Origin: an uncultured virus (IMG/VR IMGVR_UViG_3300035703_000051)
Lineage: Duplodnaviria; Heunggongvirae; Uroviricota; Caudoviricetes
Strand: one strand, 5' to 3'
Length of the DNA: 64,000 nt
IMG/VR virus record: IMGVR_UViG_3300035703_000051
Shown here: in pieces, positions 12,106 to 26,676 of the stretch
Position numbering within the stretch: the stretch's first letter is position 1
How the letters are laid out: the number at the start of each line of letters is the position of its first letter
Made by a program: the position numbers and the translations under genes
The notes under the pieces: model-generated
Told to the model about the DNA's origin: nothing
What the model saw: only the letters and a program-made list of their open reading frames with translations
The model's database searches: none

Positions 12106-12176
12106 TCGAGGCACTTGGAATCGAACCAAGGTTACCAGTACCCAAAACTGGGGTGTTGCCACTATACTATGCCTCG
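12106..12176 (-). tRNA. tRNA-Pro(TGG)
   Basis: Acceptor stem CGAGGCA/TGCCTCG, anticodon arm CCAGT-TTTGGGT-ACTGG, T arm CTTGG-TTCGATT-CCAAG. No encoded CCA. Confidence 0.9.
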
Positions 12177-13902: not shown

Positions 13903-14103
13903 TCACTTACTTTGCTTGTAACGTCTTGCAGCGCGACCAGCTTTTTTTGCACGCTCAGTGTTAGGAATAAACTGTTTGCCTTGCCTGCTACCAGCTCTTT
14001 TCTTTTGATCAGTCTCCTCACGTTCTTCTTTAGACAGTGAGGACCAGGCTTTCTCTGGAAGGTAACGCTTGGTGTATCCTTTTTGAATTGCTTTATCTGT
14101 CAT
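13903..14103 (-). CDS. Small basic protein
   Basis: TKRYLPEKAWSSLSKEEREETDQKKRAGSRQGKQF. Confidence 0.75.
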   Translation of the reverse strand: MTDKAIQKGYTKRYLPEKAWSSLSKEEREETDQKKRAGSRQGKQFIPNTERAKKAGRAARRYKQSK

Positions 14104-14105
14104 GT

Positions 14106-14276
14106 TTATTTTTTAAATTTGACGATCTGTTGCCATAAACCATTTTTAATGGCTTGGTCTATGGAAACACCCTGGGGCAAAACTTGACTAGCCCAAAAAT
14201 TTTCTTCTAATAAAAAATCTCTTGGGTCGTTACCTGGCCCAGATGTATTCATATAACGTCCAGCAATTTGCATCAT
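14106..14276 (-). CDS. 56-aa hypothetical protein (not in ORF track)
   Basis: MMQIAGRYMN...QQIVKFKK; ATGA overlap with the upstream stop codon. Confidence 0.55.
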   Translation of the reverse strand: MMQIAGRYMNTSGPGNDPRDFLLEENFWASQVLPQGVSIDQAIKNGLWQQIVKFKK

Positions 14277-14584
14277 TTATTCTCCTTGTATTTTTTGGCG
14301 GCTGCTTTAGCTTTGCCGCGTTTTTCATATTCATCCTTAGTCATCCACTTCTCCTTGCCCCACTTCTCCAGGGACTTCTGCTTTTCTCCCTTGCCTCCCT
14401 TATATCCGCCACCTGCCTTCTCGTATTCTTGAGCAACAAGCTGGGCCTTTCTAGCCGAAATAATTAGTTAGCCTTACGGCTACGACCATTCTCCTGGTTT
14501 ACCACCACGGCCTTCACGCATAATTTTGTTTTTGATACGCTCACGCAGGTCTGGTTTTGTGTACTTGCTTTTGTCTTCAGCCAT
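14273..14584 (-). CDS. Basic WSARKAQ-motif (DUF5872-like) protein interrupted by an in-frame 24-nt insert; predicted translational bypass
   Basis: 34 codons MAEDKSKY...GKPGEWS, then TAG CCG TAA GGC TAA CTA ATT ATT TCG, then ARKAQLVAQEYEKAGGGYKGG...KENK. GAGG Shine-Dalgarno upstream. Confidence 0.7.
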
Positions 14585-15320
14585 AACTTCCTCGCTCTTT
14601 AAGATAAGTGACTGCGTTTGTCAATACATCTATATTATCACCAAATAAACCTAGGGCTCTATTGCACTCTTTGCACAGCAAACCCCTGAACTCATTGGTT
14701 TTATGGTTGTGGTCCATGGCTAAAGATTGTTTGTCCTTGGGGGGCTCTTGGCAAATTGCGCATAAACCTTCCTGGATCTCAAAAACAATGTCGTATTGCT
14801 CTTTTGTTATCCCTCTGCGCTCATATTTTTTGTGATTGTTATGTAATAAATCTTGCCCTTGTTTTTTAACTTTTTGATAATGCTCTTTGTTATTGTTTAC
14901 CCATTTGTCCCAACTTAGTTTATTGCAGGCTTTGCATGAAGAATGAAGATACAATTTGCCGTCTTGCTTTCTTCTTCTAAAACAATCCCAATCTAAATAA
15001 TGAGCACATTTAGAACATTGCTTTTGACCGTCTGCTCCGTACAATAAGCTAAATCGACGGTTAACCAAAGATCTGCAATCTTTGCATACGCTGTCTCTTT
15101 TTATATTGCCAGCAGAGTTATACCCTTTGTTCCCAAAATTTTCATACGGCTTTCGGGTTCCGCATTCCCGGCAAAGTTTTTGCATTGGTTGGTTTGTGCT
15201 TTTCTTACGATAGCACAAAATCACCGGCCCGGGCTTGCCGCCCTTAGATCCAGCCATTACACGATCTTTGATACGCTCGCGTAACTCCGGCTTGGAATAT
15301 TTACTATCGTCTTGTGCCAT
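14577..15320 (-). CDS. Endonuclease VII-like homing endonuclease, in frame with a duplicate 31-codon 5' end of the downstream gene
   Basis: QEGLCAICQ...LAMDHNHKTNEFRGLLCKECNRALG plus N-terminal CxxC modules. Own start probably ATG15185. Confidence 0.85.
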   Translation of the reverse strand: MAQDDSKYSKPELRERIKDRVMAGSKGGKPGPVILCYRKKSTNQPMQKLCRECGTRKPYENFGNKGYNSAGNIKRDSVCKDCRSLVNRRFSLLYGADGQKQCSKCAHYLDWDCFRRRKQDGKLYLHSSCKACNKLSWDKWVNNNKEHYQKVKKQGQDLLHNNHKKYERRGITKEQYDIVFEIQEGLCAICQEPPKDKQSLAMDHNHKTNEFRGLLCKECNRALGLFGDNIDVLTNAVTYLKERGSYG

Positions 15321-15342
15321 TTAATTTTTACTTATATCTTTA

Positions 15343-16314
15343 TTATAAGTAACCCTTAATCAACTCCCTAATACCATCTTCAAAATTACGTTGTGCGCTC
15401 CAGCCAAGCTTTTGGATTTTGCTTGGGTTGATGGCGTACTTCAGATCATTGCCGGGACGATCAGTTACATGTTTAATCAACTGGGCGTGAGGCTTGTGCG
15501 ATGGCCTAAGTTCATCCAAGATATTACAGATGGTATAAACAACCTCTACATTGGTGCGCTCTCCATCGCCGCCAATGCAATACTGCTGACCAACCCATCC
15601 TTCTTTCATTACCAAAAGCAAAGCATCAATATGATCTTCTACATGTAACCAATCACGTACATTCTTTCCTTCCCCGTGGATTGTGATCGGCTTGCCCGCC
15701 AACGCATTGGTAATCGTCATGGGAATCAACTTCTCTGGATACTGTCCAGGACCGTAATTATTGCTGCAATTTGTAATGACTGCAGGAAACTTATAGGTGT
15801 TGTGCCAGGCCATCACCAGGTGGTCACTGGCTGCTTTACTGGCTGAATACGGTGAGCGTGGATTGTAAGGTGTTGTTTCAACAAAGAATGCTTCAGTGTC
15901 GTCTGGATGCAATGAACCAAAAACTTCGTCGGTACTAACATGTAAGAATTTAAAACTATCTTCAATACCAAGGCGGCATGCCTCAAGTAAATTAAAAGTT
16001 CCAATAATATTGCTGTAAATAAATTCCTGTGGTGATCGAATGGAGTTATCAACATGGCTTTCAGCAGCCAAATGAAAGATCTTAGATGGTTGAATTGAAA
16101 ATACCCATTCTTGAATCGCGCTTTCATTGGCTAAGTCATACGGCAATAACTGATAACGCCAACGTGCTTGAGGATGTTTAAATATTTCTTGTCCTTCGCT
16201 TGCGTAACTAAGCTTGTCAATGTTGTAAATAAAAGCATCAGTTGTATCAAGCAAACGCTTAATCAAATGACGACCAATAAAGCCGGCTCCGCCGGTAACA
16301 AGAATTTTTTCCAT
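15343..16314 (-). CDS. rfbB: dTDP-glucose 4,6-dehydratase
   Basis: GGAGFIG, HLAAESHVD, STDEVFG and YSASK motifs. Confidence 0.95.
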   Translation of the reverse strand: MEKILVTGGAGFIGRHLIKRLLDTTDAFIYNIDKLSYASEGQEIFKHPQARWRYQLLPYDLANESAIQEWVFSIQPSKIFHLAAESHVDNSIRSPQEFIYSNIIGTFNLLEACRLGIEDSFKFLHVSTDEVFGSLHPDDTEAFFVETTPYNPRSPYSASKAASDHLVMAWHNTYKFPAVITNCSNNYGPGQYPEKLIPMTITNALAGKPITIHGEGKNVRDWLHVEDHIDALLLVMKEGWVGQQYCIGGDGERTNVEVVYTICNILDELRPSHKPHAQLIKHVTDRPGNDLKYAINPSKIQKLGWSAQRNFEDGIRELIKGYL

Positions 16315-16323
16315 CTATACATA

Positions 16324-16869
16324 TTAGTGAAATAAATCGCATTCTTTCAAAGGAGTTCCTTTGGAATCTTTTAAAGAAAGAATTGGTTTTTTGGGGGCGT
16401 CCCAGGTGATTGCAAGGTCTGGATCATTCCAAAGCAAAGTCCGTTCGTGGTCTGGGCTATGTACTTCTGTCATCTTGTACAGAACATCAGCATCGTTCTC
16501 CAGGGTGGAATAACCATGCGCAAAACCTGGCGGGATCCAAACCATGTCGTGGTGGTCACCAGAGAGGTAGACGTTGATCCACTTGCCAAACGTCTTAGAT
16601 GACTTGCGTAAATCCACAATCACATCTTGGATGCGACCATGGATGCAACGCACTAATTTCCCTTGTGCTTTTTCGCCAACCTGGTAATGCAATCCACGCA
16701 CTACCTTAGAGTAAGAAGTAACAAACGAATCCTGTTTAAATTCCAGGCCATCGGTAATTTCTTTGAATTTCTCGATGTGCCAGTGGTCGCTAAAACATCC
16801 GCGAGAATCTTCGTAGCGATCAACAGAAATTAACTTGACCCCTTCCAAGGCAAGTGGTGTGACCTTCAT
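16324..16869 (-). CDS. rfbC: dTDP-4-dehydrorhamnose 3,5-epimerase
   Basis: DSRG, RGLHYQ, QGKLVRC and IPPGFAHG motifs. Frame extends upstream to 16983. Confidence 0.95.
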   Translation of the reverse strand: MKVTPLALEGVKLISVDRYEDSRGCFSDHWHIEKFKEITDGLEFKQDSFVTSYSKVVRGLHYQVGEKAQGKLVRCIHGRIQDVIVDLRKSSKTFGKWINVYLSGDHHDMVWIPPGFAHGYSTLENDADVLYKMTEVHSPDHERTLLWNDPDLAITWDAPKKPILSLKDSKGTPLKECDLFH

Positions 16870-16945
16870 GCGAGGTGCGTAAGGATTAGGAATTTCAGGC
16901 CAAACAGAATACAACTGGTTGATGTACTTGTTCAACCGTGCTTTT

Positions 16946-17152
16946 TCAGCAGCTTTCCTGCGATTTGCTTTGGTTGCGTCCAAATTTTTCCATCAGATCA
17001 TCAACGCATTCTAAAGATTCAAGGCGACAAAGAATATCGGAAATACTATTGATAGTAATCGGATGTTCTGTTCGTGCAGCAAACGCCAAAGCATCACGAA
17101 GATAATTGGTCGCTTGTTCAATCGATTCCTTAACTTGCGTAGACAGTGCCAT
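16946..17152 (-). CDS. Hypothetical protein
   Basis: MALSTQVKESIEQATNYLRDALAFAARTEHP. Confidence 0.7.
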   Translation of the reverse strand: MALSTQVKESIEQATNYLRDALAFAARTEHPITINSISDILCRLESLECVDDLMEKFGRNQSKSQESC

Positions 17153-17218
17153 TTCAGATACTTTGGGTGTTCTAACTATAGGACCAATTAGTAACATGTG
17201 TTTTATTGACGCATGTTA

Positions 17219-18478
17219 TTACTGTAATTTAAATTTGCAACTATAGCCATCACATGTAATTGGTGTGTTTACCATAAATGAATTAATGGTTTCCCCTACA
17301 TAACAAAGGTCATCATATGTAAGAACTGGAGAGGTCCCCAAGAAGAAAACTCGCTTGAGGACTTCATAAGCATTGGGATAATCTTTGGCGTTGCCAAGAT
17401 GACGGTAAGCTGGATGGAGTAATAAATTGCCAGCAAAATAATTGCGCGTTTGGATACCATTGTTTTCCAGGTATTGTTGTAGTGCTTGCTTGACTTTTGG
17501 ATTGTCGCAAACAATCGGTACACCAAACCAAGATGTTTCGGCTGGTAGTTTTTCGCCAATGATCTTAAGTTCGGCTGGATAATCTTGAAAATAATTTACG
17601 ATTGTTGTGTAATTTAAACGTCGAATTGTATGAATCTCCTCAAACTTGCTGAGCTGTACCAAACCAACAGCACCCTGCAAATCAAGGGGCTTGAGGTTGT
17701 AACCAATCTGACTGAACACATACTTGTGATCAACCACGCCGTCGTAATCCGGTAGCCATTGATCAAAACGTTTGCCGCAACTACCATTGATCAATTGGTT
17801 GCAGGCACCTACACAATAACAATCTCGTCCCCACCAGGCAAACTGCCGAGCCAAAGTAATCAACTCGGGAATATTGGATGACACCATCCCACCCTCAAAT
17901 GTAGTGATATGGTGCGCTGGGTAAAAAGAACAAGATGCCGCAACGGCATGCTTGGTCAGGTACTCACCATCCCACTTGGACCCAAGGGAATCGCAGTTGT
18001 CAGCAATGTATTTCAGTGAATGCTTTTCACAGATGTCAAGTAAACGGTCCAGATCGTAACAATTACCCAGCACAGGGCTGCTAAAAACTGCAACTGTTTT
18101 ATCCGTGATGGCATCTTCTACCTGCGAAAGATCCCAATTTAAATCATCCCAGGTGATGTCTACAAACTTTGGGGTCAGCCCATTTTGAATAATTGGGTTG
18201 ATTGTGGTCGGAAAACCAACAACACTGACAATAACCTCAGCTCCATCAGGCCACTCAAAATATTTCTTGAGTGCAGCAATCATCACAAGGTTTGCGGAAC
18301 TACCGCTATTCACCATCAGTGATGACTCAAATCCAAAGTATTTAGAAAAAGCACGCTCAAAACGATCAACATCTTTGCCTGCAGGAAACCAGGCACCCTG
18401 CTCTAGGTTTTTGATAGCTGCTTTAACTTCTTCGCCATCAAAATACGGTCCGGAGTACAGAACTTTCGATGCAGGCAT
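17219..18478 (-). CDS. rfbH: RfbH/DdhC-like NDP-4-keto-6-deoxyhexose 3-dehydrase (DegT family)
   Basis: SGSSAN; SFYPAHHIT with His in place of the PLP lysine; GRDCYC...C iron-sulfur motif. Confidence 0.85.
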   Translation of the reverse strand: MPASKVLYSGPYFDGEEVKAAIKNLEQGAWFPAGKDVDRFERAFSKYFGFESSLMVNSGSSANLVMIAALKKYFEWPDGAEVIVSVVGFPTTINPIIQNGLTPKFVDITWDDLNWDLSQVEDAITDKTVAVFSSPVLGNCYDLDRLLDICEKHSLKYIADNCDSLGSKWDGEYLTKHAVAASCSFYPAHHITTFEGGMVSSNIPELITLARQFAWWGRDCYCVGACNQLINGSCGKRFDQWLPDYDGVVDHKYVFSQIGYNLKPLDLQGAVGLVQLSKFEEIHTIRRLNYTTIVNYFQDYPAELKIIGEKLPAETSWFGVPIVCDNPKVKQALQQYLENNGIQTRNYFAGNLLLHPAYRHLGNAKDYPNAYEVLKRVFFLGTSPVLTYDDLCYVGETINSFMVNTPITCDGYSCKFKLQ

Positions 18479-25413: not shown

Positions 25414-26676
25414 ATGACTGACAACAAACCTAAACTTTTGTGGATTGGCGATATTGTTGCCACCACTGGTTTTGCTCGTGTTACTGAAAACGTACTGAGC
25501 CGACTGAAAGATAAATACGAAATCCATGTGCTGGGTTGCAACTGGCATGGTGATTACACCCCGCTCCAGGAGGAATACTTCATGTATCCAGCCTCCAATC
25601 GGTTCCAGCAGGCACCCTTTGGAGAAGATCGGATTCGTGAAATCGTTGAACGTATCCATCCTGATGTGATCTTTACGATCAACGACAGCTGGATCATTAA
25701 TGAACAATGGCGGCGCATTGCTGATCTGCGTGATCAACTTAAGTTCAAGTTCGTGGGTTACTACCCCATGGATTCGTATGAGTGGTATGGCGCACTCATT
25801 GATACATTAAATGATTGGGACGCTGCCATCTGTTACACCGAATTTGGTGCACATGAAACCATCAATGCTGGTGCCAAGGTGCCAATCACGGTTATTCCTC
25901 ATGGCATGACACCCAAGCAGTTCTATCCCGTTGACAAGAAAAAAGCACGCAAGGAGCTGGGCCTGAACCCAGATGACTTCATTGTCTTCAACGGCAACCG
26001 CAACCAGTTCCGTAAACGGATTGACATCACGATCAGTGCCTTTGCCAAGTTTGCTGTTGATCGTCCAGATGCCAAGCTTTATCTCCACATGGGAATGAAG
26101 GACCAGGGCTGGGATGTGATGCCGTTATTTGCACGAGAAATGACGCGCCAAGGGCTTGACCCCAACAACCGCATCATCATGACCACTCCCCATGAACACC
26201 CGCCATCGGTACCTGTGGAGATGCTCAACACCATCTACAACGTTGCTGATGTGGGCGTCAACACCTGCAAAGGAGAAGGCTGGGGTCTTGTCAACTTCGA
26301 GCATGCTGCCTGCCGTGTGGCCCAGGTGGTGCCCGATCACACCTCCTGCAAAGAGATCTTTGATGGCACTGGGGAGCTGATCCGTTCCCTTCACGCTGAT
26401 GTCGATACCAACTTCGGTCGCATCATGCCCTGCCCTGACGACAATCACCTTGCCCAGATCCTTGGTGACCTCTACGACAACCGTGACAAGCTCGACCAGG
26501 TGGCCCAGGCCTGTTATGACCGTGTAACGGATACCTGCTTCGATTGGGAGACGGTGGCAGGTCAGTTTGATGACACCTTCCAGGAGGTGCTGGCTAAGAA
26601 GGAGGAGGAAGCTCCACGCATCGTCAAACCAAAGGTAAAGGGTAAGGGCAAGAAAAAAGAAACAGTTGCCGTCTGA
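25414..26676 (+). CDS. Glycosyltransferase family 4 (GT-B fold)
   Basis: TGFARV, NRNQFRKRID and GEGWGLVNFE motifs. Confidence 0.85.
   Translation: MTDNKPKLLWIGDIVATTGFARVTENVLSRLKDKYEIHVLGCNWHGDYTPLQEEYFMYPASNRFQQAPFGEDRIREIVERIHPDVIFTINDSWIINEQWRRIADLRDQLKFKFVGYYPMDSYEWYGALIDTLNDWDAAICYTEFGAHETINAGAKVPITVIPHGMTPKQFYPVDKKKARKELGLNPDDFIVFNGNRNQFRKRIDITISAFAKFAVDRPDAKLYLHMGMKDQGWDVMPLFAREMTRQGLDPNNRIIMTTPHEHPPSVPVEMLNTIYNVADVGVNTCKGEGWGLVNFEHAACRVAQVVPDHTSCKEIFDGTGELIRSLHADVDTNFGRIMPCPDDNHLAQILGDLYDNRDKLDQVAQACYDRVTDTCFDWETVAGQFDDTFQEVLAKKEEEAPRIVKPKVKGKGKKKETVAV

Follow-up and report, generated by a model that had tools for sequence, protein, structure and literature searches.

A candidate ribosome-hop element within a homing-endonuclease cassette of an uncultured phage

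To our knowledge, programmed translational bypass in phages and bacteria so far rests on one element family, the coding gap of T4 gene 60 and its relatives in topoisomerase genes. Here we analyse a stretch of DNA of 64,000 nucleotides (nt) from an uncultured virus of the Caudoviricetes (IMG/VR record IMGVR_UViG_3300035703_000051; the whole stretch is termed the window below), in which the gene of a putative DUF5872 protein of 94 amino acids (aa) is interrupted by a coding gap of 24 nt. A programmed translational bypass, or ribosome hop, carried across the gap as part of a mobile homing-endonuclease cassette is, on the basis of the sequence comparisons reported here, probably the best explanation of this arrangement.

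As described in a 2022 preprint by Manning and Atkins (bioRxiv 10.1101/2022.08.31.505936), gaps of the gene 60 type are found in dozens of phages, all of them myoviruses and in all cases within the gene for the large subunit of topoisomerase II. Such gaps measure 20–50 nt, possess GNRA loops in some clades and belong to a MobA element which re-supplies the displaced codons in recoded form and whose nuclease is sometimes lost or replaced (bioRxiv 10.1101/2022.08.31.505936). The gap shields its carrier from MobA (Bonocora et al. 2011 PNAS, as cited in bioRxiv 10.1101/2022.08.31.505936). The gap of gene 60, as annotated in the T4 record, follows the GGA codon, reads TAGCC-TTCG-GGCTA at its start and ends with ATTATT in front of the landing GGA; the original prediction for the window, made from the letters alone, had given both ends correctly.

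The gap, its host gene and the surrounding cassette

On the minus strand of the window, an ATG at 14584 opens a frame of 34 codons which terminates with GAA TGG TCG and is directly followed by TAG. The site is composed of the following features.

14485–14483, minus strand: take-off codon TCG (Ser34), the same in all alleles examined
14482–14459, minus strand: coding gap of 24 nt, TAGCCGTAAGGCTAACTAATTATT
14482–14480, minus strand: stop codon TAG at the start of the gap
14482–14469, minus strand: hairpin TAGCC-GTAA-GGCTA, the first 14 nt of the gap
14468–14459, minus strand: gap tail ACTAATTATT, consisting only of A, T and C
14458–14456, minus strand: landing codon TCG, followed by GCT AGA AAG; supplied by the cassette, not native
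14455–14273, minus strand: native downstream part, A35 to K94 and the stop codon TGA (14275–14273); weak DUF5872 match at residues 22–70

Translation in frame yields 34 residues, the string stop-P-stop-G-stop-LII and then 60 residues, so that the product joined across the gap would comprise 94 aa. Read in the incoming frame, the gap of the window thus holds three stops; a TC dinucleotide does not occur in it ahead of the landing codon. The predicted layout of 34 + 60 codons with matched TCG codons, a stop immediately after take-off and a GTAA-looped hairpin is borne out by the sequence in each of these respects. The hairpin of the window (5 base pairs, GTAA loop) represents the predicted minimum-free-energy structure with a local z-score of just −1.68, and the hairpin is the minimum-free-energy structure in four of the five gap variants folded.

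The identity of the interrupted gene becomes apparent when the region is read through with X placed at the stops. The resulting polypeptide matches phrog_17747 with an expectation value (E) of 5.6e-14, and residues 7–62 of the read-through align to profile positions 17–63, which corresponds to exactly nine extra residues. The score of the same read-through against DUF5872 (PF19197) is weak (17.4 bits at a gathering cut-off of 27.5), and PF19197 is found in the precomputed annotation of most close uninterrupted homologues. A large protein collection contains 1006 homologues, the best 120 of which are uninterrupted, almost all 93–95 aa long and without exception equipped with the sequence GQWSAR at the gap site. 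Likewise, an alignment of 27 of these homologues shows no variation from G31 to R36. In every cassette copy, codon 32 specifies Glu (GEWS) compared to Gln (GQWS) in all 120 listed uninterrupted homologues, and the main-clade cassette copies contain REGR where native genes have AGSK. These changes may reflect a role of the nascent peptide, avoidance of the target site or simple descent.

The gap is part of a mobile cassette of ~770 nt composed of a gene for an HNH nuclease, recoded codons 1–34, the gap and the landing codon, inserted into the GQWS/AR motif. The order from 5′ to 3′ is accordingly native codons 1–31/32, the Endonuclease-VII-type HNH gene, recoded codons 1–34, gap, TCG and native codons 35–94. 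The original prediction, whose bypass idea is supported here, did not include this endonuclease-cassette context of the gap. Upstream of the gap the components in the window are:

15228..15320, minus strand: remnant of the native 5′ end, codons 1–31, MAQDDSKYSKPELRERIKDRVMAGSKGGKPG, holding the native start; phrog_17747 match at residues 7–31
14577..15320, minus strand: open reading frame (ORF) of 247 aa with HNH homing endonuclease; PF02945, E 2.5e-22; phrog_2633 endonuclease VII, E 4.3e-33
about 14822–14598, minus strand: Endonuclease_7 domain, residues 167–241 of this ORF
14483..14584, minus strand: recoded copy of codons 1–34, MAEDKSKYTKPDLRERIKNKIMREGRGGKPGEWS, ending at the take-off codon

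At the nucleotide level, the recoded copy and the native remnant of the window are about 61% identical. The stop codon of the nuclease overlaps the ATG of the 34-codon frame, and the recoded copy has a ribosome-binding site of its own. In relatives such as L011 (2266–3008), the native copy constitutes a leader ORF of its own with 32 codons and a terminal TGA, and the nuclease comprises 202 aa starting from a conserved ATG. In the window, the remnant and the nuclease are fused in frame (15180–15320) as a result of one extra base at the junction and of CAA in place of TAA in L011. This fusion is a minority form, a continuous tblastn match over residues 1–247 being obtained only in the window, L004 and L055. 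Judged by sequence conservation, the nuclease of the window likely starts at position 15185 with an ATG that is also found in L011, giving 202 aa which begin with MQKLCRECG. A start at the GTG overlapping the TGA of the leader was considered and dropped, as in L011 a stop separates this codon from the conserved ATG. In several relatives, both with and without the cassette, a second endonuclease-VII-like sequence with 33–44% identity to the nuclease of the window is located ~1.2–2 kilobases (kb) downstream of the gene (L010 4282–4752, L024/L025 4767–5159, L013 4850–5197, L078 4255–4725 and L043 4798–5031).

Allele variation, mobility and selection

Two sets of alleles were compared. Protein-based retrieval provided a locus set of 80 related viral contigs and the window, 30 of them gap-bearing and 51 gap-free. 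A hairpin-independent scan of the viral collection, which required only Pro-Gly-Glu-Trp-TCG-TAG, returned 45 matches, of which 40 are this gene. TCG and TAG at take-off are consequently present in 40/40 alleles of the scan, whose pattern demanded them, and also in 30/30 of the protein-based set. The landing codon is TCG in 37/40 scanned alleles (TCT in 2, lost in 1) and in 29/30 of the protein-based set. The hairpin TAGCC-GNRA-GGCTA is found in 38/40 alleles with the loops GTAA (21), GTGA (13), GCAA (2) and GGGA (2), and the gap measures 20 nt in 2, 21 nt in 14, 24 nt in 20, 26 nt in 2 and 30 nt in 1 of the 40, the one remaining allele being decayed. The pooled scans yielded 15 gap variants by pattern, to which the hairpin-independent scan alone added two, a GGGA form of 20 nt and a second form of 26 nt. 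Additional alleles with 26- and 30-nt gaps were retrieved together with long flanking sequence. The stretch between hairpin and landing codon is devoid of a TC dinucleotide in all 15 variants and contains G in only one of them, a 26-nt variant ending with TGA. At third positions of the adjoining cassette codons the diversity amounts to 0.34 compared to 0–0.12 at the hairpin positions and 0.47 at the variable loop position, in a comparison set partly retrieved by patterns which contain the hairpin.

Scans for forms with another take-off codon or an altered stem added none. No match to this gene was obtained among 47 matches with TCA, TCC or TCT as take-off codon in the PGEWS context, among 28 with take-off codons not ending in G and the same hairpin, or among 8 with stem variants in the metagenome collection. 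A scan for the same hairpin gave at least 120 matches including 32 of this gene; the other 88 listed were rejected as further cases, being coding sequence in other frames or intergenic hairpins lacking open frames on both sides.

As a separate observation on the hairpin of the window (14452–14482, minus strand), its 5′ arm extended by one base (UAGCCG) could pair without mismatch with CGGCUA, which lies at the landing site (UCG GCU AGA). The alternative helix of 6 base pairs would loop out the entire gap and is possible only with GCT AGA after the landing codon, as present in 14/30 alleles; AGA at this position is unusual among native alleles.

All 30 gap-bearing loci of the protein-based set have the nuclease gene or a remnant of it upstream, namely the full gene in 24, a gene cut by the contig end in 1 and only the last 19–28 codons in 5, whereas a nuclease adjoins the gene at no gap-free locus (0/51). 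Three pairs of near-isogenic phages, one member of each carrying the cassette and the other lacking it (L001/L045, L003/L039 and L011/L022), place the left junction inside the Trp33 codon and the right junction at or just past the second TCG. In the pair L011/L022, the sequence 3′ of the landing codon is essentially identical with a handful of scattered differences, and the position occupied by TCG in the carrier L011 reads AGT in its cassette-free twin L022. The native Ser codon in 40 distinct gap-free alleles is AGT in 12, TCT in 12, AGC in 7, TCG in 4, TCA in 4 and TCC in 1. Because L022 carries AGT and the native codon is seldom TCG, the landing TCG was brought in by the cassette and matched to the take-off codon. 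Cassette-free alleles, skipping 14449 to 15227, also occur in contigs of an independent DNA run (X5), and in some alleles flanking sequence has been co-converted (GCT AGA AAA after the landing codon).

Gaps of 20 and 26 nt change the frame, and all alleles with such gaps have a downstream part that is open and conserved in the frame set by the landing TCG. The term "in-frame" used in the original prediction therefore applies to the 24-nt gap of the window and not to the element in general, as relatives have frame-changing gaps. Both sides are open in 32/32 distinct alleles, and the downstream part is intact in 30/30 of the protein-based set. The ratio of non-synonymous to synonymous differences (pN/pS) for the 50 downstream codons is 0.147 in 22 gap-bearing and 0.097 in 39 gap-free alleles. 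In the four long-gap alleles it ranges from 0.06 to 0.21 for the downstream part, and the differences fall mostly on third positions of the landing frame (e.g. 3/2/22). Decay of the downstream part in insert-bearing relatives, named beforehand as an outcome contrary to a hop, is thus not seen in these sets; the part is intact and under purifying selection.

The same data bear on the view that the cassette simply damages its target. According to this explanation, a dispensable gene was inactivated, the hairpin is a terminator, an attenuator or a scar, and the conservation stems from repeated homing into intact alleles. In line with this, the host gene is of no assigned function, one allele (L279) is visibly decaying, the downstream diversity could predate the insertion, and the hairpin with its tail is the sole terminator-like site flagged in 14000–15500, where shuffled sequences give a mean of 1.8. 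The T-rich tail is, on the other hand, missing in the 21-nt variants, and a contig from an RNA library continues through the hairpin (see below). Furthermore, the 30 cassette-borne codons analysed display a synonymous difference (pS) of 0.49 and a pN/pS of 0.07 (22 distinct gap-bearing alleles), and it appears unlikely that mere disruption would keep 34 recoded codons in register and under purifying selection. The alleles L202 and L205 contain no nuclease trace. Because their pS values are equal for the cassette-derived (0.29) and the native portion (0.30), these alleles split after the gap had been gained; nevertheless both parts are open, the C-terminal part has a pN/pS of 0.21, and the 26-nt gap is identical at 26/26 positions. 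Together with the open frames on both sides in all distinct alleles, these findings make mere damage by a selfish element an improbable explanation.

Routes from the first part to the second

Conventional ways of joining the two parts were considered on the basis of the gap variants. In each variant, between two and four stops interrupt the incoming frame. Those 21-nt variants whose loop is GTGA have TAG and TGA in frame and, in all but one, TAA as well; because they carry several different stops, reassignment of a stop codon cannot help. The 26-nt variants possess an additional in-gap stop in the landing frame, and a single frameshift is therefore excluded for them. Removal of the insert from the RNA, against which a check had been advised at the outset, is made less likely by a 696-nt contig from a metatranscriptome library which spans 14268–14943 without any indel and hence keeps the gap; a second RNA run (X19) covers 14488–14664 and neighbouring pieces and neither bridges nor excludes the gap. 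A search of Rfam over 14200–15400 produced no match at E up to 1, and we know of no self-splicing intron as small as this gap. Readthrough, stop reassignment, single or double frameshifting or excision at the RNA level are suggested by the fact that the gap of the window is a multiple of three and that some phages do reassign stop codons. In view of the 20- and 26-nt gaps, which are not multiples of three, of the mixed stops in most 21-nt variants and of the stops in both frames of the 26-nt variants, we regard this group of explanations as very improbable.

An artefact of assembly or sequencing, a doubt raised together with the original prediction, is still harder to conceive and is ruled out by many independent contigs. 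The gap or close variants thereof are present in 29/80 related viral contigs, 40/45 matches of the hairpin-independent scan, two contigs of metagenome-assembled genomes (MAGs) and contigs of independent sequencing runs, and nothing in favour of an artefact was found.

A more serious alternative is a split or truncated gene. In this case, translation would stop at the UAG, and the 34-aa peptide, a separately initiated C-terminal fragment (by reinitiation at AUU or AUA) or both, or one of the pieces alone, would suffice for function. Such an arrangement would be favoured by the fact that 11/15 variants contain ATT or ATA in frame after their last stop and ahead of the landing codon, and by an ATG six codons past the landing codon in a divergent clade. 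It would also fit the AlphaFold model of a gap-free homologue, which predicts separate helices, with the gap site located where a loop ends and helix 35–47 is about to begin, albeit with a mean predicted local distance difference test score (pLDDT) of only 64; for the same reason, an argument from the fold that both parts must be one chain was abandoned. In the same interval, however, a start codon ATG, GTG or TTG is present in 0/15 variants, and the near-cognate ATT and ATA are absent in 4 of them, including all 26- and 30-nt gaps. Moreover, the break sits within the invariant GQWSAR motif, and the sequence Ala-Arg-Lys-Ala-Gln after the landing codon is kept in gapped alleles through at least nine synonymous codon combinations. 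Finally, two separate products would have no need of the second TCG supplied by the cassette. On balance, a split gene seems unlikely.

Neither a start codon nor readthrough nor a single frameshift can join both parts, and the bypass interpretation put forward in the original prediction, with a hop inferred from sequence, is supported by every computable check. Several observations nevertheless weigh against it. A mini Shine-Dalgarno sequence 5–7 nt before the landing codon is absent, the only AGG/GAGG lying 10–19 nt upstream and inside the hairpin. The local folding z-scores are modest (−0.4 to −2.1), and the hairpin with its tail fits the loose terminator pattern mentioned above. A few alleles depart from the rule: the landing codon is TCT in two alleles of the scan and in L055 of the protein-based set; the allele L038/L243 has a degenerate stem with both parts still open; and L279 has a 3′ arm changed by mutation to GGCCA, no longer possesses the landing TCG and shows frame damage in the N-terminal part (…MREWPWIGKPGEWS), its downstream part being still open in another frame. 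Matched codons and stem are conserved and are not shown to co-vary: no covariation is found, the take-off codon is constant, and none of the 8 matches to stem variants is this gene. Some of the diversity downstream could be older than the insertion, provided that the alleles entered by the cassette had diverged before, and the contig from the RNA library could derive from contaminating DNA.

Considering all these points, we propose the following scenario for programmed bypass at this locus. Ribosomes would read the 34 recoded codons and then pause, peptidyl-tRNA-Ser being paired to UCG in the P site while UAG occupies the A site. The stop is part of the hairpin UAGCC-GNRA-GGCUA, which might hinder the release factor and favour take-off. 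Subsequently, the messenger RNA would slide through the tail, which is built only of A, U and C and is free of the UC dinucleotide, until the transfer RNA (tRNA) re-pairs at the first UCG and decoding restarts at Ala35 to give the 94-aa protein. By analogy with the known system, the gap would split the nuclease target in the restored gene and thus render the carrier immune to its own nuclease, leaving the protein sequence unchanged. This self-immunity is suggested by the position of the gap exactly at the insertion point (W33/S34) and by the MobA/gene 60 analogy.

Phage context and comparison with known systems

The window represents a phage fragment with genes for DNA polymerase, primase, terminase and head proteins. 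Among cultured phages, Synechococcus phage S-EIV1 is the only relative, a structural protein of 771 aa being 75% identical at the amino-acid level; the designation as a cyanophage in the original prediction is accordingly plausible and at the same time unproven. In S-EIV1, found by blastn, the gene encodes 94 aa, is free of the gap and specifies the serine by AGT. In the deposited annotation this gene (KJ410740 15196–15480; L234 1378–1662) starts internally and encodes only 73 aa, whereas an ATG 63 nt upstream of the annotated start opens an ORF of 94 aa, the length typical of the family. A tblastn search with the 60-aa downstream part against cultured phages gave no match. Assignment of a host from genome contigs was discarded as unreliable, as 2/6 matches are this gene and lie on Bacteroidota MAG contigs of 2.7–2.9 kb that are probably binned phage fragments. 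The only tRNA gene of the window is a tRNA-Pro (anticodon TGG) at 12106–12176 (minus strand), and the choice of UCG is unexplained by a phage-borne tRNA because no tRNA-Ser is encoded in the window. Genes of sugar-nucleotide metabolism (nucleotide-sugar epimerase, dTDP-4-dehydrorhamnose 3,5-epimerase, aminotransferase and glycosyltransferase) are located next to the cassette at 15343–18478 (minus strand) and at 25414–26676 (plus strand).

If the proposed bypass is true, it constitutes a second system involving another gene, phage group, nuclease family and tRNA, and hopping would be a more general answer to a problem of selfish DNA, that of breaking the target site of a nuclease while sparing the protein. 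The alleles would offer a natural mutational series of about 15 variants of 20–30 nt with four GNRA loops and both frame types in a protein of 94 aa. This series is a compact test bed for the minimal signals of take-off, sliding and landing, for the need of a Shine-Dalgarno guide in short hops and for the effect of the nascent peptide. As gene callers split or truncate such genes, the signature of a homing nuclease, a recoded 5′ copy, a stop within a hairpin and a repeated codon can help to find others, and the cassette should be of high interest to the fields of recoding and of mobile elements. Full-text literature searches revealed no report of such an element. In a broader perspective, gaps crossed by ribosome hops might be a module used by, or independently evolved in, unrelated homing endonucleases for self-immunity; the present cassette would then be an independent and near-minimal version, in which an efficient hop over 20–30 nt without a Shine-Dalgarno guide would require no more than a stop in a 5-base-pair GNRA hairpin, a tail free of G and a duplicated UCG. 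To this wider proposal we give slightly less than an even chance.

Comparison with known systems starts from the mobile byp elements in the mitochondria of Magnusiomyces capitatus (Lang et al. 2014, as cited in bioRxiv 10.1101/2022.08.31.505936), which are likewise short inserts in coding sequence (27–55 nt) with matched codons. They differ in being mitochondrial, in having an unassigned sense codon after take-off and in numbering dozens per genome, and the available passage on them describes no linked endonuclease. Free-standing phage homing genes of the HNH (endonuclease VII) type share with our locus the Endonuclease_7 domain, a conserved coding site, presence or absence among related phages and co-conversion of flanks; they lie between genes or split a gene, and re-supplied codons or a coding gap are not part of them.

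The likeness to T4 gene 60 and MobA extends much further. Both have matched take-off and landing codons, a UAG directly after take-off, an AU-rich 3′ portion of the gap without a premature landing triplet and frame-keeping as well as frame-changing gaps. Both gaps lie just 3′ of an HNH-type nuclease and are accompanied by recoded target codons, presence or absence in near-identical phages and, in some lineages, loss of the nuclease with retention of the gap. The stem TAGCC/GGCTA, including the stop and closed by a stable tetraloop, is identical to that of T4, and the gap of the window also ends with ATTATT. The likeness of the stems may reflect common descent or convergence; a UAG-first stem closing a tetraloop with two G:C pairs has few alternatives.

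Several differences set the locus apart. The target is a putative DUF5872 protein of 94 aa in place of topoisomerase II with its Asp45/Gly46 site, and the carriers are S-EIV1-like freshwater phages in place of T4-like myoviruses. The nuclease belongs to PF02945 with the motif at the C-terminus, whereas the MobA fragment of T4 matches PF01844 (HNH), and BLASTP of the window nuclease against T4 gp60.1 gives an E of 0.37, in a comparison with what is the decayed MobA of T4. According to the preprint, the codons involved are Gly or Asp in gene-60-type gaps compared to Ser UCG here, the gaps mostly measure about 50 nt compared to 20–30 nt here, and a mini Shine-Dalgarno sequence (GAG/GGG/GGA/AGG) is located 5–7 nt 5′ of the landing codon, which is not the case here. 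Shortness as such, stressed in the original prediction, is not new, as the preprint already includes a gene-60-type gap of 20 nt. Furthermore, unlike in gene 60, the full N-terminus is re-supplied, a remnant of 31/32 codons persists upstream and the gene is not split into two working genes. Taken together, by its sequence organisation the element appears to work like the T4 gene 60/MobA cassette without belonging to that family.

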